Positions 1 to 62,618 of a DNA stretch of 64,000 nt are shown here, one piece after another (position 1 is the first letter of the stretch; every line of letters begins with the position of its first letter). The position numbers and the translations under genes were made by a program. Source of the DNA: a phage. Location of the stretch: assembly GCA_012628545.1 (NCBI GenBank), contig GCA_012628545.1_3035.1; one strand, given 5' to 3'. Below the pieces are notes generated by a model. It made no database searches and was not told the origin of the DNA. It was given only the letters and a program-made list of their open reading frames with translations.

Positions 1-26
1 TTTTATTCTCCGAGATGTTTAATTGC

Positions 27-66
27 GGTACAGGTATATAATATCATATCCTGTACCAAAGTAAAC
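27..66 (-). promoter_or_regulatory. early promoter, -10 region inside an inverted repeat
   Basis: GTTTAC -35 (rc of 61..66); IR ggtacagg / cctgtacc flanks tatataatatcatat. Confidence 0.4.
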
Positions 67-70
67 TATT

Positions 71-439
71 TTATGCAACTTTAATCCAATTATCTAAATT
101 TAATTCACCTTTGGCTTTCATTTTTTCAATCAAGAGGTCAGCGGTAATACGACCATTTTGATACCACGTAACATCTTCAGAGTAACCAGTTTCTTTATCT
201 TCATAAGTCTCGCAGCGAATTTTACCAAGAATCAAAGTTTTTAATTCGTATGTATCTCCAGTAAAAAAGTTAGTTAACATTATTTTCCAAGAGAAATCAT
301 CAGAAGGACCTTCAGGAGTCATACAATCTACGAATTCAAATTGTTCTTTGTATAAGTGCCACTGAAGTTCTTTAGTTTCGATAGCTTTATAGCCGTCGTG
401 ATCTTTACCTTTGATGTATGAGTTAAGATTGATTTTCAT
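71..439 (-). CDS. hypothetical protein
   Basis: 122-aa ORF in early-gene orientation; no recognisable motif. Confidence 0.5.
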   Translation of the reverse strand: MKINLNSYIKGKDHDGYKAIETKELQWHLYKEQFEFVDCMTPEGPSDDFSWKIMLTNFFTGDTYELKTLILGKIRCETYEDKETGYSEDVTWYQNGRITADLLIEKMKAKGELNLDNWIKVA

Positions 440-515: not shown

Positions 516-544
516 AAAATAAAAAAGGACTCCCGAAGGAGTCC
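516..544 (-). terminator. rho-independent terminator
   Basis: Hairpin ggactcc-cgaa-ggagtcc (UUCG loop on minus strand) followed by U-run. Confidence 0.5.
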
Positions 545-549
545 TCAAC

Positions 550-3095: not shown

Positions 3096-3328
3096 AGTAC
3101 GCCATACACCCTTTGTGCTTCAACTAATCCATCAAAATCCAATTTGAGATGTGTTATTTGGTCACCATCACCTGGATTCACAATTACTAATACTGAACGA
3201 GGAGTTTCGGTAATAACACGAACCGATGTTTCTGGAAATCGTTCAGAAACCTTATTTACCAATTCCTGAGCAAATAGTTTAACTTTTTCTTGGAATTCTT
3301 TAACAGTAATTGGTTTTTCACTTAGCAT
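3092..3328 (-). CDS. hypothetical protein
   Basis: 78-aa ORF downstream of early promoter. Confidence 0.5.
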   Translation of the reverse strand: MLSEKPITVKEFQEKVKLFAQELVNKVSERFPETSVRVITETPRSVLVIVNPGDGDQITHLKLDFDGLVEAQRVYGVL

Positions 3329-3350
3329 TTTGTTTTCCTCATTTGTTTTG

Positions 3351-3388
3351 GTAGAGCTATAATATCACAACTCTACCAAAAAGTAAAC
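3351..3388 (-). promoter_or_regulatory. early promoter, -10 region inside an inverted repeat
   Basis: GTTTAC (rc of 3383..3388); IR ggtagag / ctctacc around ctataatatcacaa. Confidence 0.4.
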
Positions 3389-6715: not shown

Positions 6716-8303
<1,588 letters not shown>

Positions 8304-8330: not shown

Positions 8331-9509
8331 TTAAAAATATTTTTTAAAACTCATCATAACTTTATCATCAACATCATTATCAATCTGTGCAACAAGGTAA
8401 GATGACAGTTCTACTTCTTGCGGCGCGGATTGAACATTATCAGAATTAAGGTATTCACGAATCCAAGGATATGGATGTTTAACCGGAGCATCGGTAATTG
8501 GGCATGGAAGACCGCACTGTTTCATACGAGATACAGTTAAGTAATCAATAAAGCTCCACATGCTATTTGTATTTAATCCAGGAACATCGCCATCTTTAAA
8601 TAAATGAACTGCCCAATCTTTTTCTTGGCGGTTAACTTCCATGAAAATATCAACTGCTTCTTGTTCACACTCTTTGGCAATTTTAACCCATTCATCACCA
8701 TCAGTGCCAAGTTGAAGTTGACGAATAATATATTGTGTACCTTTAAGATGAAGCTGCTCATCACGTGCAATGAACTTCATAATCTTGGCATTACCTTCCA
8801 TGATTTCCATATTCTTGTGGAAGTTAAAGGTACATGCAAAAGATACATAAAAACGAATAGCTTCCAATGCGTTGATTACGTGCAGGCAGAGGTAAAGAGA
8901 GCGCATTAGTTCACGTTTCCAATACATTTCATGCTCTATGGCATCTTCAATAACGTCTTCGTCTGCATTAATTTCTTTTTGGTATTCGATATCAGCTTTA
9001 GCGTTTTCCCAATAACGAGTTTTAATCAGAACATCATCATAATAACGACCAATAGATTCAGCGCGTTTCATAATAGCTTCATCTAATACAATCTCATCAA
9101 ATACCTTTGACGGATCAGTATAAAGATTTCGCATGATATGAGTATATGAACGACTGTGAATAGTTTCACTAAAAGTCCACGTAGCAACCCATGTATCAAG
9201 GCTTGGGTCTGAAATCAATGACATAAGTACAGCAGACGGCGCACGACCCTGAATGCTATCCAAAAGTGATTGATACTTCAGATTATTAGTAAAAATATCT
9301 TGCTGATATTGAGGAAGCTTGTTAAATTGCGCAGCATCCATCATTAAGTTTACTTCTTCAGGGCGCCAGAAAAATGACAACTGCTTTTCGGTTAAATCTT
9401 CAAAAACTTTATGACGTTGAATATCATAACGCGCAATACCAAGACCTGAACCAAAAAACATAGGTTCTTTTAAAACATCAACTGGATTTGTATTAAAAAC
9501 TGTGCTCAT
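8331..9509 (-). CDS. nrdB: ribonucleotide reductase small subunit
   Basis: 392-aa uninterrupted ORF, class Ia R2 family; no intron. Confidence 0.9.
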   Translation of the reverse strand: MSTVFNTNPVDVLKEPMFFGSGLGIARYDIQRHKVFEDLTEKQLSFFWRPEEVNLMMDAAQFNKLPQYQQDIFTNNLKYQSLLDSIQGRAPSAVLMSLISDPSLDTWVATWTFSETIHSRSYTHIMRNLYTDPSKVFDEIVLDEAIMKRAESIGRYYDDVLIKTRYWENAKADIEYQKEINADEDVIEDAIEHEMYWKRELMRSLYLCLHVINALEAIRFYVSFACTFNFHKNMEIMEGNAKIMKFIARDEQLHLKGTQYIIRQLQLGTDGDEWVKIAKECEQEAVDIFMEVNRQEKDWAVHLFKDGDVPGLNTNSMWSFIDYLTVSRMKQCGLPCPITDAPVKHPYPWIREYLNSDNVQSAPQEVELSSYLVAQIDNDVDDKVMMSFKKYF

Positions 9510-9560
9510 AAATTTTCCACTTAGTTAATAGATAGTGACTCGTCCATGAGTCAAATTATA

Positions 9561-11825
9561 TCATAATTTACAGGATGAACAATCTTCAGCTTTTGGAGTT
9601 TCTATTTCATAATCATCAGTACCAGAACCATCACGGGTATTATGATAATAGAAATTTTTTCCGCCAAAATACCAAAAATACAAAAGGTCATCAATCATTA
9701 TTGACATTGGAACCTTTCCTTTTGGAAAAATCTGTGGGTCATAATATGTATTCGCCGAAGCTGATTGACAAACCCATTTCAGCATAATAGCTACCTGCGT
9801 AAGATAAGGTTTATTACCTTTCTTAGCTAATTTCCATGTATAATCATAGAGGTCTATGTTATGCTCAATATTGGGCACGACTTGATTAAAGGAGCCCTCT
9901 TTTGATTCTTTAACAGAGACTGGTCCACGTGGAGGCTCGATACCGTTTGTACTGTTAGAAACTTGGGAAGATGACTCACATGGCATAAGTGCTGATAATG
10001 TGCTATTACGGATGCCAAAGAGCTTAAGGTCTTCCCGCAGCGACGACCAGTCACAAACGTATTTTGGAGCTGCGATTTGGTCAATCTTTTTATTGTACCA
10101 GTCGATAGGTAATTCGCCTCGAGACCAACGAGTGTCTGAATAATATTCGCAAGGTCCTTTTTCTTTGGCGAGCTTAATGGATGCTTTAATGAGTCCATAC
10201 TGTAATCTCTCAAATAGTTCATGTGTTAAATCGTTAGCATCTTCATAAGAAGCAAAGTTACTTGCCAGCCAAGCTGCATAGTTAGTAACACCTACACCGA
10301 GGTTACGACGCTTTTTAGCTTTTTCTGCTTCAGGAACTGGATATCCTTGGTAATCCAAAAGATTATCAAGAGCACGAACTTGAACTTCTGCTAATTCATT
10401 AATTTTATCTTGGTCTTGCCAATCGAAGTTATCCAGCACAAATGCAGATAACGTGCACAATCCAATTTCAGCATCGGGGCTATTCACATCATTTGTTGGA
10501 ATAGCAATTTCACAGCACAAGTTACTCTGACGAATAGGTGCCTTTTCACGAATAAATGGAGTATAGTTATTCGTATTATCAATGAACTGTACATAAATCC
10601 TTGCTGTTCCTGAGCGTTCAGTCATGAGCAATTCAAATAGTTCACGGGCTTTAATACGCTTTTTACGAATATTAGGGTCTTTTTCTGCTGCTTCGTATAA
10701 TTCACGGAAACGGTCTTGGTCTTTAAAATAAGAATAATAAAGCTCGCCACCCATTTCATGCGGACTGAACAAAGTAATGTAATCGTTCTTTCCGAATCGT
10801 TCCATCATCAAATCATTCAGCTGAACACCATAATCCATATGACGAATGCGGTTTTCTTCTACGCCTTTGTTATTTTTCAAAACGAGAAGATTTTCAACTT
10901 CCAAATGCCAAATAGGATAATAAGCAGTAGCAGCACCGCCACGAATTCCACCCTGTGAGCATGATTTAACTGCAGTCTGAAAATGTTTCCAAAAAGGAAT
11001 AACACCGGTATGGCGTACTTCACCCATGCCAATCTTAGAACCTTCGGCACGAATCATACCAACGTTAATACCAATTCCAGCGCGTTTAGAGATATATTCA
11101 ACAATTGAAGCGGAAGCCTTATTGATAGACTTCAGCGAATCACCTGCCTCAATAACAACACATGAACTAAACTGTCGAGTCGGAGTACGACAACCAGCCA
11201 TAATAGGAGTTGGCAGTGAAATCTGTCGAGTAGATACTGCTTCATAAAAACGGATAACATGTTTTAATCTATCAACAGGTTCATCTTGATGCAATGCCAT
11301 TCCAATAGTCATAAATGCAAACTGTGGAGTTTCATAAATTTGACCAGTGGTTTTATCTTTAACTAGATATTTTTCTTTTAATTGCATCGCCCCGGAATAA
11401 GTAAATTCCATATCCCGCTCGTGCTTAATTTTTGATTCTAAAAATGTAATTTCTTCTGCTGAATATTTTGACAATAATTCAGGGTCATATTTACCTGCAT
11501 TTACACAATAAGAAATATGGTCAATAAATGAACGCGGTTCATACTGCCCATAAACATGCTTACGAAGAGCAAACATTAAACAACGTGCAGCTACATATTG
11601 GTAATCAGGCTCTTCAACCGAAATAGAATTCGCAGCGGCCTTAATGACAATAGTCTGAATATCATCAGTGGTCATTCCATCACGGAGATATGATTTAATA
11701 TTTTCATATAATTCATAAGGATCTACAGATGTTCCTTCAGCTGCCCAAGATAAAACTTTAATAATTTTTTGCGGGTCAAAGCTCTGAGAAACACCACTAC
11801 TTTTGATAACATTAATTAATTGCAT
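9561..11825 (-). CDS. nrdA: ribonucleotide reductase large subunit
   Basis: 754-aa ORF, class Ia R1 family; T4 NrdA length. Confidence 0.95.
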   Translation of the reverse strand: MQLINVIKSSGVSQSFDPQKIIKVLSWAAEGTSVDPYELYENIKSYLRDGMTTDDIQTIVIKAAANSISVEEPDYQYVAARCLMFALRKHVYGQYEPRSFIDHISYCVNAGKYDPELLSKYSAEEITFLESKIKHERDMEFTYSGAMQLKEKYLVKDKTTGQIYETPQFAFMTIGMALHQDEPVDRLKHVIRFYEAVSTRQISLPTPIMAGCRTPTRQFSSCVVIEAGDSLKSINKASASIVEYISKRAGIGINVGMIRAEGSKIGMGEVRHTGVIPFWKHFQTAVKSCSQGGIRGGAATAYYPIWHLEVENLLVLKNNKGVEENRIRHMDYGVQLNDLMMERFGKNDYITLFSPHEMGGELYYSYFKDQDRFRELYEAAEKDPNIRKKRIKARELFELLMTERSGTARIYVQFIDNTNNYTPFIREKAPIRQSNLCCEIAIPTNDVNSPDAEIGLCTLSAFVLDNFDWQDQDKINELAEVQVRALDNLLDYQGYPVPEAEKAKKRRNLGVGVTNYAAWLASNFASYEDANDLTHELFERLQYGLIKASIKLAKEKGPCEYYSDTRWSRGELPIDWYNKKIDQIAAPKYVCDWSSLREDLKLFGIRNSTLSALMPCESSSQVSNSTNGIEPPRGPVSVKESKEGSFNQVVPNIEHNIDLYDYTWKLAKKGNKPYLTQVAIMLKWVCQSASANTYYDPQIFPKGKVPMSIMIDDLLYFWYFGGKNFYYHNTRDGSGTDDYEIETPKAEDCSSCKL

Positions 11826-12379: not shown

Positions 12380-13240
12380 TTACACCGCCATTTTTCCTTT
12401 AATTGGCAGATGAGATACATAGTTGTTAAGAACAAAATTATGAGGCTTTGCAAATTGACTCAACCAAAATACCTGCGATTCTGTGTCCCATTCATCAAAT
12501 TCATCTGGAAATTTTAATTGTAATTCGCATAAATCCATAGGTTCACGACGTAAAATTTCTTTACATTGTTCTACGTGATTCATATAGATATGAGTATTAC
12601 CACCAGAAAATATCAAATCTCCAGGAATAAGATTACACATTTTAGCTACAATATGAACTAACGTAGCATATGATGCAATATTAAATGGAAGACCGAGGAA
12701 AACATCTACCGAACGTTGATACCACTGCAAATCTAAATAGCCATTACGCACATTAAACTGATAGAACATATGACAAGGCGGTAATGCCATATATTTAAGT
12801 TCAGCTGGATTCCACGCAGAAACAATTTGACGCCTATCATTCGGCAGTTTTTTAATACGATCAATAACTTCTACAATTTGGTCTACACCGCCAAAATCAC
12901 GCCATTGTTTTCCATAAATTGGACCAAGTTCACCGCTATGATATCCTAAATCTTTTGCCTGATTTTCGTAATTTTCATCCCAGACTGTTTTGCCTTGGAT
13001 TAACGAATCGTGTTGAATTAATCGTAAATCATTGACATTTGTGCTTCCTGATAAAAACCATATTAGCTCAGCAATGCATGCATTCCAGGCGAGCTTTTTA
13101 GTTGTTACTGCAGGAAAGCCTTTAGTTAAATCCCAACGCAATTTAGTACCGAACAGAGCAATTGTTCCTGTGCCTGTGCGATCATCGGTTTCATAGCCAT
13201 TTTCAAAAATGTCTTTAATTAAATCTTGGTATTGTTTCAT
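12380..13240 (-). CDS. td: thymidylate synthase
   Basis: 286-aa uninterrupted ORF with ThyA active-site region LPPCH; no intron. Confidence 0.95.
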
Positions 13241-15087: not shown

Positions 15088-15132
15088 TTAGTTGATAAGG
15101 CTATAGTATCACTACCATAGCCTGTTGTAAAC
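15088..15132 (-). promoter_or_regulatory. early promoter (conserved family)
   Basis: tagttgata...ctatagtatcac...gtaaac arrangement. Confidence 0.45.
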
Positions 15133-15134
15133 AA

Positions 15135-15428
15135 TTATTTTTGAATTTTATCGAGCCACTTACCAAGCTTAATCATTTCTTTAGTAGCCTTTTCCATACT
15201 TCTGAACTTAACCAATAGAGGATAGGTATCGACACCCATAACTAAACTGGTTACAAGACTGTGTTCACCCACAAGCCATAACGAATACGTTTGAATATCG
15301 AGCCCGTAATTTCTGTCTTTGTGGACCCGTACACCCATCACTTCAAATTTCTCACTAGCTTTTTCTACTGCATCCAGGAAATCATCTTTAGTCATATTAG
15401 GCCTTAAAAGTTTTTCGCAAAAGTTCAA
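15135..15428 (-). CDS. hypothetical protein
   Basis: 97-aa ORF. Confidence 0.45.
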   Translation of the reverse strand: MNFCEKLLRPNMTKDDFLDAVEKASEKFEVMGVRVHKDRNYGLDIQTYSLWLVGEHSLVTSLVMGVDTYPLLVKFRSMEKATKEMIKLGKWLDKIQK

Positions 15429-17100: not shown

Positions 17101-17170
17101 TTTTATTTCCTTTTAATTTAATTAACAGTTGGTGCTATGACGATGTATGACCTCATAGCTGGTCAGTGAG
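17101..17170 (-). promoter_or_regulatory. gene 32 translational operator (leader with pseudoknot)
   Basis: Leader contains GCUAUGAGGUCAUACAUCGUCAUAGCACC followed by A/U-rich tract before the AUG. Confidence 0.45.
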
Positions 17171-17173
17171 ATA

Positions 17174-17202
17174 ATTATAATCTATTTATAATAAGCAATT
17201 AA
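17174..17202 (-). promoter_or_regulatory. overlapping middle and late promoters of gene 32
   Basis: Minus strand TTGCTTAT MotA box, 12 bp, TATAAT; TATAAATA within the spacer. Confidence 0.45.
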
Positions 17203-19464: not shown

Positions 19465-22400
19465 ATGGCCGAGATTAAAAGAAAGTTCAGAGCAGAAGAT
19501 GGTCTGGACGCAGGTGGTGATAAAATAATCAACGTAGCTTTAGCTGATCGTACCGTAGGAACTGACGGTGTTAACGTTGATTACTTAATTCAAGAAAACA
19601 CAGTTCAACAATATGATCCAACTCGTGGATATTTAAAAGATTTTGTAATCATTTATGATAACCGCTTTTGGGCTGCTATAAATGATATTCCAAAACCAGC
19701 AGGAGCTTTTAATAGCGGACGCTGGAGAGCATTACGTACAGATGCTAACTGGATTACGGTTTCATCTGGTTCATATCAATTAAAATCTGGTGAAGCAATT
19801 TCGGTTAACACTGCAGCTGGAAATGACATTACGTTTACTTTACCGTCTTCTCCAATTGATGGTGATACTATCATTCTCCAAGATATTGGAGGAAAACCTG
19901 GAGTTAACCAAGTTTTAATTGTAGCTCCAGTGCAAAGTATTGTAAACTTTAGAGGTGAACAGGTACGTTCAGTACTAATGACTCATCCAAAGTCACAGCT
20001 AGTTTTAATTTTTAGTAATCGTCTGTGGCAAATGTATGTTGCTGATTATAGTAGAGAAGCTGTAATTGTAACACCAGCGAATACTTATCAAGCGCAATCA
20101 AATGATTTTATCGTACGTAGATTTACTTCTGCTGCACCAATTAATGTTAAACTTCCAAGATTTGCTAATCACGGCGATATTATTAATTTCGTTGATTTAG
20201 ATAAACTGAATCCACTTTATCATACAATTGTTACTACATACGATGAAACGACTTCAGTACAAGAAGTTGGAACTCATTCCATTGAAGGCCGTACATCGAT
20301 TGACGGTTTCTTGATGTTTGATGATAATGAGAAATTGTGGAGATTGTTTGACGGGGATAGTAAAGCGCGTTTACGCATTATAACGACTAATTCTAATATT
20401 CGTCCAAACGAAGAAGTTATGGTATTTGGTGCGAATAACGGAACAACCCAAACAATTGAGCTTCAGCTTCCAACTAATATTTCTGTTGGTGATACTGTTA
20501 AAATTTCCATGAATTACATGAGAAAAGGACAAACAGTTAAAATCAAAGCTGCCGGTGAAGATAAAATTGCTTCTTCAGTTCAATTACTGCAATTCCCAAA
20601 ACGCTCAGAATATCCGCCTGAAGCTGAATGGGTTACAGTCCAAGAATTAGTTTTTAACGGTGAAACTAATTATGTTCCAGTTTTGCAACTTGCTTACATA
20701 GAAGATTCTGATGGAAAATATTGGGTTGTACAGCAAAACGTTCCAACCGTAGAAAGAGTAGACTCTTTAAATGATTCTACTAGAGCAAGATTAGGCGTAA
20801 TTGCTTTAGCTACACAAGCTCAAGCTAATGTCGATTTAGAAAATTCTCCACAAAAAGAATTAGCAATTACTCCAGAAACATTAGCTAACCGTACTGCTAC
20901 AGAAACTCGTAGAGGTATCGCAAGAATAGCAACTACTGCTCAAGTGAATCAGAACACCACATTCTCTTTTGCTGATGATATTATCATCACTCCTAAAAAG
21001 CTGAATGAAAGAACTGCTACAGAAACTCGCAGAGGTGTTGCAGAAATTGCTACTCAGCAAGAAACAAACGCAGGAACAGATGATACAACCATCATTACTC
21101 CTAAAAAGCTTCAAGCTCGTCAAGGTTCTGAATCATTATCTGGTATTGTAACTTTTGTATCTACTGCAGGTGCTACTCCAGCTTCTAGCCGTGAATTAAA
21201 TGGTACGAATGTTTATAATAAAAACACTAATAATTTAGTTGTTTCGCCAAAAGCTTTGGATCAGTATAAAGCTACGCCTACTCAACAGGGTGCAGTAATT
21301 TTAGCAGTTGAAAGTGAAGTAATTGCTGGACAAAGTCAGGAAGGATGGGCAAATGCTGTTGTAACGCCAGAAACGTTACATAAAAAGACATCAACTGATG
21401 GAAGAATTGGTTTAATTGAAATTGCTACGCAAAGTGAAGTTAATACAGGAACTGATTATACTCGTGCAGTCACTCCTAAAACTTTAAATGATCGTAGAGC
21501 AACTGAAAGTTTAAGTGGTATAGCTGAAATTGCTACGCAAGTTGAATTCGACGCAGGCGTCGACGATACTCGTATCTCTACGCCATTAAAAATTAAAACT
21601 AGATTTAATAGTACTGATCGTACTTCTGTTGTTGCTCTATCTGGATTAGTTGAATCAGGAACTCTCTGGGACCATTATACCCTTAATATTCTTGAAGCAA
21701 ATGAGACACAGCGTGGTACACTTCGTGTGGCTACACAAGTTGAAGCTGCTGCAGGAACATTAGATAATGTTTTAATAACTCCTAAAAAGCTTTTAGGTAC
21801 TAAATCTACCGAATCGCAAGAAGGTGTTATTAAAGTTGCAACTCAGTCTGAAACTGTGACTGGAGCATCAGCAAATACTGCTGTATCTCCAAAAAATTTA
21901 AAATGGATTGTGCAGAGTGAACCTACCTGGGCAGCTACTACTGCGGTAAGAGGTTTTGTTAAAACTTCATCTGGTTCAATTACGTTCGTTGGTAATGATA
22001 CAGTCGGTTCTACCCAAGATTTAGAACTGTATGAGAAAAATAGCTATGCAATATCACCATATGAATTAAACCGTGTATTAGCAAATTATTTACCGTTAAA
22101 AGCAAAAGCTGCAGATAGTAATTTATTGGATGGTCTAGATTCATCTCAGTTCATTCGTAGGGACATTGCGCAGACAGTTAATGGTTCACTAACCTTAACC
22201 CAACAAACGAATCTGAGTGCCCCTCTTGTATCATCTAGTACTGCTGCGTTTGGTGGTTCAGTTTCGGCAAATAGTACATTAACTATTTCTAATACTGGAA
22301 CGGCAACTCGTCTGATTTTTGAGAAAGGACCTCAAACTGGAACTAACCCAGCACAGACGATGACTATCAGAGTTTGGGGAAATCAGTTTAGTGGCGGATC

Positions 22401-44580: not shown

Positions 44581-44653
44581 AATTATCTCTCACTTGTTAA
44601 AAAGATTTTATACTCCACAGGACCATTATACTCTGGTCCCAAGAGTTTGTAAA

Positions 44654-45091
44654 CTAGCTTACACGAACATTAATCACTGCGCTACGAGGAACTACAGAGT
44701 ATTCTCCAGCATGAACTACGTTCAGAAGTTCAACACCATCTTCAATCCACTGATCAGTCACCCATCCACCCACAGGATTCGCGAATGGACGACGAATATA
44801 AACTGCCTTACACAGCAGATCAGTTGGATCTTCAGGTTTTTCAATTTCTGTCAATAGACTAAAATCTTTTTCATAAATAATAAGCGGTGATACCATTCCA
44901 TAATAGTTTCTAATTTCAATATACATCATACCGATAAGAATTCCGCTATTAACACTAATAACAGTAAAAGGATATCCGCCAGTTAAACCAAGAAGTTCAC
45001 AAAACTTATTATGAGCTGTATTAGACAGTACCGAAAAATTCTTAATTTCATCAAATTTTTTCAATTGATAAACAGCATTATTTTTAATCAT
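44654..45091 (-). CDS. hypothetical protein, C-terminal module paralogous to upstream ORF
   Basis: 145-aa ORF; shares motif TDQW(I/V)EDGV(E/K)L.N.V..G.Y.V(V/I)P with ORF 44089..44580. Confidence 0.5.
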   Translation of the reverse strand: MIKNNAVYQLKKFDEIKNFSVLSNTAHNKFCELLGLTGGYPFTVISVNSGILIGMMYIEIRNYYGMVSPLIIYEKDFSLLTEIEKPEDPTDLLCKAVYIRRPFANPVGGWVTDQWIEDGVELLNVVHAGEYSVVPRSAVINVRVS

Positions 45092-45101
45092 AATTTTCTC
45101 T

Positions 45102-45653
45102 TTAATCTAAGGTAATAAAGCCTTTTAATTCGGCATGGGATTTACGGAACATTACTTGGTGCCCGCCAATGATAACTTGGTCATCTGGCACTTCATAAAT
45201 CGCAATGTACATTCCACGTTCTTTTAAGTCTTCACGCTCTTCTCGAGTGAACCATCTCATCATATCATATTCACTAGCGAAAGCAAAATGATATAATGCA
45301 ATAAACCACAATGGAATATAATTTTCAATTCGTGAATAATCTTTATTCCATTTAGTTTTAATAACATCATTAGCATTTTCAACTAATAACTTATCATCGT
45401 GTGGAATAGGAATACTTTCATGGCTTTCATAATTATCGCTATGATGATGAAATGACGATGAATTAATACCACAAAATTTTAGCCAAGTTCGAGTTTTCAT
45501 AGAATCAAATCCACGATAAGGAGTTGATTGAACGCATAACTCTTGCCTAATTTTGACTATACCACTATCATCATTTAATGCGCTAAACGATGATTCAACA
45601 CGATAAATTTTCATTTTATTATCCTCAGTAGCTATGGTGTTATAATACCACAA
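45102..45653 (-). CDS. hypothetical protein
   Basis: 183-aa ORF. Confidence 0.5.
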   Translation of the reverse strand: MWYYNTIATEDNKMKIYRVESSFSALNDDSGIVKIRQELCVQSTPYRGFDSMKTRTWLKFCGINSSSFHHHSDNYESHESIPIPHDDKLLVENANDVIKTKWNKDYSRIENYIPLWFIALYHFAFASEYDMMRWFTREEREDLKERGMYIAIYEVPDDQVIIGGHQVMFRKSHAELKGFITLD

Positions 45654-45677
45654 CTAACCGAGGAAGTAAACAACTTT

Positions 45678-56840: not shown

Positions 56841-56898
56841 AACAATCTCCTCATTTAACCAACAAGACTACTATACCATAGTCTTGTCAGCTTGTAAA

Positions 56899-58326
56899 CT
56901 AAAATTTTAATTCATTTGCCAAAGCATCTAACTGTGCTCGAGTGGATTCATTTCTTTGATAGCGATTCTGTTCAGCCTGAATCTGTTGTGAACCTGCTAC
57001 TTCACTCACTTCAGTTGGAGTAGAATCTTGTTCAATTTCTACCCATTTCTGATTTCCCTTTTGAACACCCATCAAAAACTTATTCCACTTATTCTTATCG
57101 CCATATCGTGATTTGATTTGCTTAATGAGTTGTTGTTCAGCAGCTGCTAGCTCCTCGGTTTCAATGACCGCAAGCATAAAATCAGCTGTTGCTGGAAGAC
57201 CAGCAGATTCTGCGATATCACTCATGTTAACATCGGAAGAGTCCCAAGCTTGTTTACCAACCTGTGCTGCAGTCCAAAGAACAGTTTCGGTTTCAACAGC
57301 AAGAGCACGCAATTCCTCTGCAATAGCTTTAACAGTTGTGTAACTATTTTCTGAGTAAACTCTGATGCGGCAAGATTTACAAATACCTAGATAGTCGACA
57401 ATAATGATTGTTGGAACAAAATTCTTTTTGAGCTTCAATTCATTCAAGAGAGACCTGAATGTGTTAGCATCTGCCCCACCAGTAGGGTACTGTTTAACAA
57501 TTAAACGACCGAGAGTAGATTTCTCACGCCATTTTTCCATTTTTCCTTTATACTCAGCGTAAGAAATATGCCCATCATCAATGTCATCAAGAGAAACATC
57601 GAGCATATTAGCGTCAATACGTTTAGCACAGACTTCTTCTGCCATTTCCATGGAGATATAAAGAACGTTATGTCCAAGCTGTAAATAATCTGCTGCTAAT
57701 GAACACAATCCTAATGATTTACCAACGTTAACGCCAGCCATTAAAACGTTCAGTGTTCCAGTTTCAGCTCCGCCTTTAGTAATTTTGTTTAGAATTCTGA
57801 GTTTAAATGGAACCTTACGAGCTTTATTCATATAAGATAGCCAACGTGCTTCGTAGTCATCCATCCAATCATGACCAACGTAACTATCAAATGAAATTGA
57901 TAATGCTTGGCGCATGATGTCAGGAATAGCACCAACATCCGGCATTTTCTTATTTCGTTTTTCCGGAGGAAGCTCAGCATTAGTTTGAATTTCGATTATT
58001 TTAGACGTAGCATTAAACATCGCCCTCTGCTGAACATATTTTTCAGTTTCTTTTACTAACCAGCTGTGGTCTTCCGGAGAATCAGCTAGTTTTGAAATAA
58101 GTGTTTTTACACCAGAATATTCTGTTTCCGTAAATGAACTATTTTCTAATGCAACATTTAACGCATTAATAGATGGAACGCTATGATACTCATTGACATG
58201 AGATTTAATTAATTTGAATGTATTTTTAGCTGGACCACTTTCAAAATATTCTGAATCCATATATGGCCAAACTTTTGAAAAATAAGCTTGATCAAATATG
58301 AGATGAGAAAGAATAATTTCTACCAC
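56899..58326 (-). CDS. 41: replicative DNA helicase (DnaB-like)
   Basis: 475-aa ORF with Walker A GVNVGKS; apparent GTG start. Confidence 0.95.
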   Translation of the reverse strand: MVEIILSHLIFDQAYFSKVWPYMDSEYFESGPAKNTFKLIKSHVNEYHSVPSINALNVALENSSFTETEYSGVKTLISKLADSPEDHSWLVKETEKYVQQRAMFNATSKIIEIQTNAELPPEKRNKKMPDVGAIPDIMRQALSISFDSYVGHDWMDDYEARWLSYMNKARKVPFKLRILNKITKGGAETGTLNVLMAGVNVGKSLGLCSLAADYLQLGHNVLYISMEMAEEVCAKRIDANMLDVSLDDIDDGHISYAEYKGKMEKWREKSTLGRLIVKQYPTGGADANTFRSLLNELKLKKNFVPTIIIVDYLGICKSCRIRVYSENSYTTVKAIAEELRALAVETETVLWTAAQVGKQAWDSSDVNMSDIAESAGLPATADFMLAVIETEELAAAEQQLIKQIKSRYGDKNKWNKFLMGVQKGNQKWVEIEQDSTPTEVSEVAGSQQIQAEQNRYQRNESTRAQLDALANELKF

Positions 58327-62569: not shown

Positions 62570-62618
62570 ATCAGTAGTTGATAGTTGTATAGTACCATGG
62601 AAGAACATTCTTGTAAAC
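62570..62618 (-). promoter_or_regulatory. early promoter (conserved family)
   Basis: GTTTAC, 15 bp, TGGTACTATACAACTATCAACTACTGATACG. Confidence 0.5.

Follow-up and report, generated by a model that had tools for sequence, protein, structure and literature searches.

The window considered here, by which we mean the whole stretch of 64,000 nucleotides of phage DNA that was analysed, is approximately 97-98% identical to Tequatrovirus genomes over its first 6 kb, and on this similarity it is assigned to a Tequatrovirus (T4-like phage). The gene order is colinear with 30.7-30.8-30.9-rIII-31-cd-cd.2-cd.3-pseT of T4 and every gene in this region is on the minus strand, so that both sites of interest are read on the minus strand as well. 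Site 1 (27-66) separates the stop codon of 30.8 from gene 30.7, whose ATG falls just outside the window on the left and whose Shine-Dalgarno sequence (GGAG, 8-11, minus strand) is inside. Site 2 (3346-3388) is located between cd.3 and cd.2, and is followed by the Shine-Dalgarno sequence (GAGG, 3337-3340) and the ATG (3326-3328, both minus strand) of cd.2, which encodes a 78-aa product with a DUF7320 domain. The orthologous intergenic regions of T4 are those between 30.8 and 30.7 (site 1) and between cd.3 and cd.2 (site 2), and the T4 record names the latter as early promoter Pe133295 (Pe133.3, upstream of cd.2). Elsewhere in the window, alignment gaps against T4 at ~8833-8836, 9509-9565, 12691-12692 and 17162-17198 correspond to introns and genes of T4, the nrdB and td introns as well as mobE and segG being absent. 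A search of the whole window with Rfam covariance models at the gathering score gave no match, and that this includes group I introns is consistent with the missing introns.

T4-type early promoters were recognized by a GTTTAC -35 element, a spacer of 16-18 nt, a TGn-extended -10 element of the form TAnnnT and an AT-rich upstream stretch, together with the right orientation and a position 20-40 nt before an early gene. In the sense orientation the elements of site 1 are arranged as GTTTAC-17 nt-TATTAT, with the -35 element at 61-66 (minus strand; gtaaac on the plus strand and identical in T4) and the -10 hexamer at 38-43, and it appears in the consensus scan as TTTACT-16-TATTAT. Site 2 reads GTTTAC-18 nt-TATTAT, with the two elements at 3383-3388 and 3359-3364 of the minus strand, and appears in the scan as TTTACT-17-TATTAT. 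At both sites a TG is found two bases ahead of the hexamer (extended -10), and all sequence features of a T4-type early (sigma-70) promoter, including the AT-rich upstream stretch, are present. The preliminary description of this DNA had noticed early promoter-like elements at 27-66 and 3351-3388, and T4 orthology and the consensus scan agree in identifying both as predicted strong sigma-70-type early promoters of a T4-like phage.

Each of these promoters carries an inverted repeat whose 5' arm is held by the spacer and whose 3' arm lies just past the -10 element. At site 1 the repeat is ggtacagg (27-34) / cctgtacc (50-57) on the plus strand, an 8/8 perfect match with 15 nt between the arms. 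In the sense orientation the 5' arm GGTACAGG (50-57, minus strand), 8 nt with 100% complementarity, is in the spacer between -35 and -10, and the 3' arm CCTGTACC (27-34, minus strand) covers the predicted transcription start (~31). The repeat of site 2, ggtagag (3350-3356) / ctctacc (3371-3377), extends to a perfect 11/11 match (3346-3356 / 3371-3381), with the sense arms TTTTGGTAGAG (3371-3381, minus strand) in the spacer and CTCTACCAAAA (3346-3356, minus strand) over the predicted start (~3352). The arms of both repeats are identical in phage T4. A -10 region inside an inverted repeat of 7-8 bp had been described for both sites, and the arms are indeed in these places, with TATTAT as the -10 sequence and with site 2 reaching 11/11. 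The distance of 5-6 bp given between repeat and GTTTAC was roughly right, as 3 nt separate the two at site 1, and at site 2 the gap is 5 nt for the 7-bp arm and 1 nt for the 11-bp arm. The -10 element was also correctly seen as lying in the loop (at site 1, in the loop or 3' side of the hairpin), but the extent of the structure had been underestimated, since at both sites the sequence enclosed by the arms is in turn self-complementary. Folded as sense RNA, site 1 gives a 13-bp stem of -14.5 kcal/mol (z -4.3), and with outer GUUUA/UAAAC pairs the full predicted hairpin spans 17-66 (minus strand) at -19.4 kcal/mol. Site 2 gives a 16-bp stem with 3 G.U pairs and a 4-nt loop, AUAU (3346-3381, minus strand; -19.8 kcal/mol, z -7.1).

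These repeats and hairpins are far in excess of what chance produces. The pattern GGTASAG-N8-22-CTSTACC occurs twice in the 64-kb window, namely at the two focal sites, versus no occurrence in 100 shuffles. A broader comparison was based on the 21 minus-strand GTTTAC-N16-18-TAnnnT elements of the window, with a control in which the spacer of each promoter was paired with the downstream flank of another, such that the position-specific composition was preserved. An inverted repeat of at least 8 bp surrounds the -10 element in four of the 21 early promoters (66, 496, 3388 and 56899), where 0.05 would be expected, and in 1 of 420 swapped-partner combinations; for arms of at least 7 bp a permutation test gave P ~0.0016. 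By folding, a hairpin centred on the -10 element with z below -3.5 was found in 6 of the 21 promoters. Besides 66 (30.7) and 3388 (cd.2), these are 15132 upstream of frd.1 (hairpin at 15098-15132, -15.6 kcal/mol, z -3.8), 44654 upstream of motB (44612-44654, -17.4 kcal/mol, z -3.7), 45671 upstream of motB.2 (45622-45671, -23.7 kcal/mol, where the 3' arm also lies over the Shine-Dalgarno sequence) and 56899 upstream of dmd (56857-56899, -18.9 kcal/mol, z -5.0, directly after the stop codon of gene 41), all on the minus strand. Independent scans of T4 and RB69 gave the same picture of hairpin promoters.

The hairpin promoters also share a position relative to the preceding gene. In all six of them the upstream stop codon is found -1 to +6 nt from GTTTAC, versus three of the 15 others (Fisher P=0.0015), and when RB69 is pooled with the window the stop codon abuts 9 of 10 hairpin promoters versus 12 of 29 others (P=0.01). 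The gap between stop codon and -35 element is 4 nt at site 1 and 2 nt at site 2, and none of the six has a separate terminator, or room for any other signal, before GTTTAC. The hairpin-less promoters 496, 16118, 32468 and 52971 sit behind textbook terminators. Since the hairpin promoters adjoin upstream stop codons, it follows that the hairpin occurs where the promoter sequence is transcribed within a longer message, and read-through is to be expected at the focal sites as only 2-4 nt, and no terminator, separate the end of the upstream gene from the -35 element. One textbook intrinsic terminator of the window (525-546, minus strand) separates gene 30.9 from 30.8 and directly precedes the 30.8 promoter; it consists of GAGGACTCC-TTCG-GGAGTCCTT followed by TTTTATTTT. 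Near-identical early promoters without a hairpin (..AAAAATTTTTTCACAAAAC-GTTTAC..GTGGTACTATACAACTATCAACTAC) also form a family, with members at 62618, 36101, 32468 and 16118 on the minus strand, of which 32468 and 16118 lie directly behind classical terminators.

With respect to the following gene, the Shine-Dalgarno sequences are outside the stems of both focal sites, 15 nt past the 8-bp arm at site 1 and 5 nt past the stem at site 2, and read-through RNA shows no loss of their computed accessibility relative to RNA started at the promoter itself; masking is therefore not the mechanism at these two sites. At some sister promoters the 3' arm does include the Shine-Dalgarno sequence, namely at 45671 (motB.2) in the window and, in RB69, at motB.2 (13 bp, perfect) and ORF040c (11 bp, perfect). 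Counting these, pairing of the spacer with the downstream Shine-Dalgarno sequence was observed at several early promoters, both in the window (45622-45671, 35594, 6712 and 447-482) and in the RB69 locus L043 (~20467-20533 and 7371-7443, with up to 13 bp perfect at motB.2). Such pairing would mask the ribosome-binding site in read-through RNA and leave it free in locally started RNA.

Transcription from sigma-70 promoters starts about 7 nt after the -10 hexamer. At both sites this start falls in the 3' arm and the RNA of the promoter itself is therefore without the 5' arm, from which it follows that the hairpin is possible only in RNA initiated upstream or in single-stranded DNA. One suggested meaning of the repeats was that these transcripts have a structured 5' leader; this is contradicted by the geometry, with the start inside the 3' arm, and leader folding, which had been proposed as a check, yields only -2 to -3 kcal/mol for both promoters, i.e., unstructured leaders. 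As for the nucleic acid that folds, the sense folds are more stable than the antisense folds at all six hairpins, and the promoter consensus is G/T-rich on its 5' side. G.T versus A.C pairs flanking the perfect cores number 17:8, versus 150:95 in the swapped controls (P=0.67), so there is no excess, and the sense-strand wobble preference was dropped as evidence for RNA given that it is no greater than promoter base composition produces. In consequence, the sequence does not decide between RNA and single-stranded DNA. When folded as DNA, the two strands each give about -7.6 to -9 kcal/mol (z ~-5), with stems of 8-12 bp and loops of 12-14 nt. A search of the accessible literature found neither experimental data on these hairpins nor genome-wide maps of T4 5'/3' ends.

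The preliminary description had made its reading depend on the repeats being conserved in related phages, and since they are kept, the objection fails: the hairpins are retained in relatives belonging to Mosigvirus and Dhakavirus. For cd.2, the stem is GGTAGAG/CTCTACC in T4 and AR1, GGTGGAG/CTCTACC in RB69-type phages, which gives a G.U pair on the sense strand, and GGTAGGAC/GTCCTACC in JS10/JS98-type phages, a perfect 8-bp stem with both sides changed, and it is weakened in one phage (FriedrichMiescher). In an alignment of nine distinct cd.2 versions, 87.9% of the cells are paired versus 29-63% when the partner is slid, and three pairs are changed on both sides, although these compensatory changes are modest evidence on their own because essentially one lineage split lies behind them. 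A protein-based search for the cd.2 locus in IMG/VR returned five loci only, which are near-identical. The arms of the 30.7 promoter are conserved as sequence in Mosigvirus and Dhakavirus, with one C-to-T change that gives a G.U pair. In a Klebsiella phage the sequence of the 3' arm of this promoter is retained and the 5' arm is lost, so that what is conserved may in part be the start-site region and not the pairing. With a loose DNA pattern for the 30.7 promoter, the matches listed were unrelated contigs only, none of them usable.

The strongest comparative evidence for the predicted hairpin is supplied by the sister promoters. For frd.1, T4 has the stem AGGGTAGTAG.., the window AGGCTATGGTA.. 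and RB69 GATAGGGCTATT..; at motB.2 the T4 stem bears no sequence relation to that of RB69, with the hairpin kept; and after the stop codon of gene 41 the stems vary by genus, being ACAAGACT/AGTCTTGT, ATAGGGCT/AGCCCTAT or GTGTAGGAGC/GCTCCTACAC. Every one of these versions folds into a strong hairpin whose loop holds the extended -10. Roughly 8 of 9 single-sided arm substitutions in orthologues are wobble-compatible on the sense strand, a count that is too small and whose members are not independent.

Several hairpin promoters are located at break points of gene replacement. The 30.8 gene of the window (83-421; Pfam Phage_30_8) has no DNA-level similarity to 30.8 of T4, both flanks being similar, and it is bounded by break points at the early promoters 66 and 496; the replacement looks like a swap of a module. 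Likewise, the ORF upstream of frd.1 (15092-15403) is replaced relative to T4, and homology ends inside the frd.1 promoter hairpin. At cd.2, an extra ORF of 176-184 aa is inserted exactly between the promoter with its Shine-Dalgarno sequence and cd.2 in AR1 (L007, 373-903), JS10 (L009, 379-933), FriedrichMiescher (L010, 373-915) and many others, the insertion point corresponding to approximately 3326 in the window. One record labels this ORF as a 'putative homing endonuclease'; a Pfam search with the ORF gave no match, and the label is thus unsupported here.

Given these observations, the sites represent no new regulatory element, and no structured leader of the transcripts that start there. 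We consider the chances about even that they are cassettes of the promoter-early stem-loop (PeSL) type, in which the hairpin, formed in read-through RNA, would act as an intercistronic boundary and as a recombination joint. Such a cassette would consist of an upstream stop codon, an AT-rich stretch, the -35 element GTTTAC, a stem-loop, and then the Shine-Dalgarno sequence and ATG, with the extended -10 and the start site contained in the loop and 3' arm of the stem-loop. In its duplex form it would be used by the host RNA polymerase as an ordinary strong promoter, and RNA initiated there would begin within the 3' arm and be unstructured. The hairpin would form only in RNA made by polymerases that initiated upstream and read through, where it would most likely be a boundary element between cistrons that folds away the AU-rich promoter sequence and that dampens or punctuates read-through by a pause, by attenuation or as a barrier to 3' decay. 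The conserved cassette would double as a joint for the exchange of gene modules between related phages. We infer that RNA rather than DNA is the active form and that the hairpin has an effect on this RNA, its probable function being that of an attenuator, an RNA boundary or a recombination joint.

It can further be speculated, more tentatively, that the hairpins amount to a general layer of early control in T4, with about one quarter of the early promoters inside hairpins and upstream-initiated RNA physically unlike local RNA. Read-through RNA would then be folded, with the promoter looped out and the neighbouring ribosome-binding site insulated or masked, decay and translation of the message would be altered, and a small early gene would be tied to the time window of its own promoter. 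Even less likely is a variant in which extrusion of the DNA shows the -10 element as a single-stranded loop and makes it a supercoiling-sensitive switch. If the hairpins do act on read-through RNA, as in the boundary-and-joint reading of the PeSL-type cassettes, this would help to explain how tiny genes are expressed separately in a genome with dozens of strong promoters arranged head to tail, and also how cassettes are swapped so cleanly at these joints. For annotation, an inverted repeat over the -10 element of a T4-like phage should be taken neither for an operator nor for a leader structure, as it belongs to a described class of cassettes.

Other explanations have to be weighed against this. 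The hairpin could be a true transcription terminator placed over the promoter, as the authors of the PeSL study proposed, which stops polymerases coming from upstream and leaves the genes mainly self-driven. One RB49 stem-loop did reduce lacZ expression about as much as rrnB T1 (PMC2839356), but that test concerned a different, G/C-rich stem and did not separate termination from RNA processing. In the record of phage SA35RD (OL960577.1; L164, 328-374), the orthologue of site 1 carries a WebGeSTer 'rho-independent terminator' that overlaps a 'T4 early promoter', although this annotation is computational only. That the hairpin promoters are those lacking a separate upstream terminator also fits; however, neither stem is followed by a U-rich tail (AAAACAAAUGAGG and GCAAUUAAAC; tails AAAACAAAT and GCAATTAAA), and the terminator scan, which picks up the classical terminator at 525-546, reports neither focal site. 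A canonical intrinsic terminator, with a G+C-rich stem and a U run within 0-2 nt, was accordingly rejected as a candidate at sites 1 and 2, and we regard the broader terminator explanation as unlikely. A translational discriminator of the kind established for T4 e, soc, 49 and I-TevI (PMC3014915), by which read-through RNA is masked and local RNA is translatable, would agree with the placement of the Shine-Dalgarno sequence inside the 3' arm at 45671 and at the two RB69 promoters mentioned above, which reproduces that arrangement for early promoters. For the focal sites themselves it is quite improbable, as 5 and 15 nt lie between their stems and the Shine-Dalgarno sequence, whose accessibility is not reduced in read-through RNA.

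Operators are typically inverted repeats over the -10 element, and an operator for a dimeric DNA-binding repressor or activator, also raised in the preliminary description, would suit both this position and the motif GGTA[C/G]AG...CT[G/C]TACC that the focal sites share. It might also help with the shut-off of T4 early promoters, which is not fully explained (PMC2988021). What makes it very improbable is that pairing, not sequence, is kept: the single arm difference between the focal sites (C/G) is compensated, orthologues swap arm sequence with complementarity retained, and the GGTASAG/CTSTACC motif is present nowhere else in the 64 kb. Other promoters of the class have unrelated arms (GGTACAGG, GGTAGAG, AGGCTAT, ACAAGACT, GGGACC and others, with no common motif), and a shared operator is therefore unlikely. 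Action of the repeat in DNA, be it as a supercoiling-driven cruciform whose single-stranded -10 loop is a switch or as a target of recombination or nucleases, is the least probable of these explanations, even though both DNA strands can fold, with the energies given above, and break points are located at the cassettes. Short stems with long loops are energetically unfavourable for cruciform extrusion, which applies to the DNA stems of only 8-12 bp with loops of 12-14 nt, and a cruciform leaves the abutment of hairpin promoters on upstream genes unexplained. The crossover of an RB49 PeSL mini-circle was mapped to the loop (PMC2839356), which would be in line with a role in DNA. The T4 GenBank record flags the loop at 3357-3370 (T4 133300-133313, 14 bases) as the 'inverted complement of previously reported sequence', but among 639 matching phage records the flipped loop is seen only in X03007.1, a partial T4 entry of the 1980s, and an invertible (flip-flop) segment was rejected. 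Finally, T4 replication is known for quasi-palindrome-templated mutation, and the hairpin could be a functionless by-product of such mutation, of the partly palindromic extended -10 consensus and of common descent of the promoter cassettes. The inner five pairs are indeed consensus bases (TGTG versus TATA) present at most promoters; the outer, G/C-containing arms, however, are promoter-specific and fail in the swapped-partner control, the hairpins are retained across three genera with different sequences, and their association with gene junctions is non-random, so that we hold this explanation hardly probable.

Among known systems, an intrinsic terminator-promoter pair such as that formed by 525-546 and the 30.8 promoter resembles the focal sites in having an intergenic hairpin beside a promoter between co-oriented genes. 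The focal hairpins differ in that they are without a U tail, have a longer, AU-rich apex and overlap the promoter instead of lying ahead of it. Horwitz and Loeb reportedly described in 1988 a synthetic E. coli promoter regulated by a cruciform. In such cruciform promoters, and in the hairpin promoters used by the virion RNA polymerase of phage N4 (PMC4496689), an inverted repeat likewise coincides with promoter elements. N4, however, relies on its own polymerase and on stems of 5-7 bp with 3-nt loops in single-stranded DNA, whereas the focal sites would use the host sigma-70 holoenzyme on duplex -35 and -10 elements, and their DNA loops are too long for easy extrusion. For T4 e, soc, 49 and I-TevI, a promoter within an RNA hairpin by which longer transcripts have their ribosome-binding site masked has been reported (PMC3014915). 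The likeness consists in a promoter inside the hairpin, with local RNA lacking the 5' arm and read-through RNA able to fold, and in sister early promoters of the window and of RB69 that mask the Shine-Dalgarno sequence; the difference is that those are late promoters whose hairpins mask the Shine-Dalgarno sequence or AUG, whereas the focal sites are early and their stems stop short of the Shine-Dalgarno sequence.

The closest counterpart is the PeSL cassette, described in RB49 and phi1 with G-T pairs in its stems, for which an attenuator role was proposed and a role in recombination demonstrated (Arbiol et al., 2010; PMC2839356). The class was later extended to T4 and PST, with KVP40 and nt-1 also included (Comeau et al., 2014; PMC4122927). 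The differences lie in stem sequence and placement. RB49 stems are G-runs opposite C-runs and its cassettes are near-identical copies, whereas here the stems are of mixed sequence and differ from promoter to promoter; the similarity between the two focal cassettes is only ~60%, which makes them less repetitive than the RB49 PeSLs, and the six hairpin promoters in 64 kb average 61% column identity in their alignment. Moreover, the 2014 figure legend for PST and T4 places the stems 'just upstream' of the promoter (PMC4122927), whereas here the -10 element is enclosed. Repeated cassette copies are found in RB69, JS10 and phages of ~159 kb (TAGGACT..AGTCCTA; AGGGTTAT..ATAACCCT). In more distant T4-like phages of about 159 kb from IMG/VR (L013, L024, L026 and L035), at least four near-identical copies of the cassette AACCGTTTACTTTCCTTGAGGGTTATGATACTATAACCCTATCAAAACAAATGAGGAAAATAAAATG were observed, and its repeat AGGGTTAT/ATAACCCT overlaps the -10 element. 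When read directly, PeSL193/192 of RB49 (GGGAGT..TAAGAT..ACTCCC) has the same geometry as sites 1 and 2, and the other named RB49 PeSLs have GGGGATC..GATCCCC abutting TATAAT, none of them with a U tail. The shared layout comprises an upstream stop codon, an AT-rich stretch, sigma-70-like -35 and -10 elements, a stem-loop in the spacer or over the -10 element with G.T pairs in the stem and no U tail, and then the Shine-Dalgarno sequence and ATG, in regions of small early genes where insertions and replacements occur between close relatives. At both focal sites the arrangement from stop codon to Shine-Dalgarno sequence and ATG, the stable stem-loop within the promoter and the break points between relatives are all present, and on this shared layout and geometry the two sites are thus best seen as T-even members of the described class.
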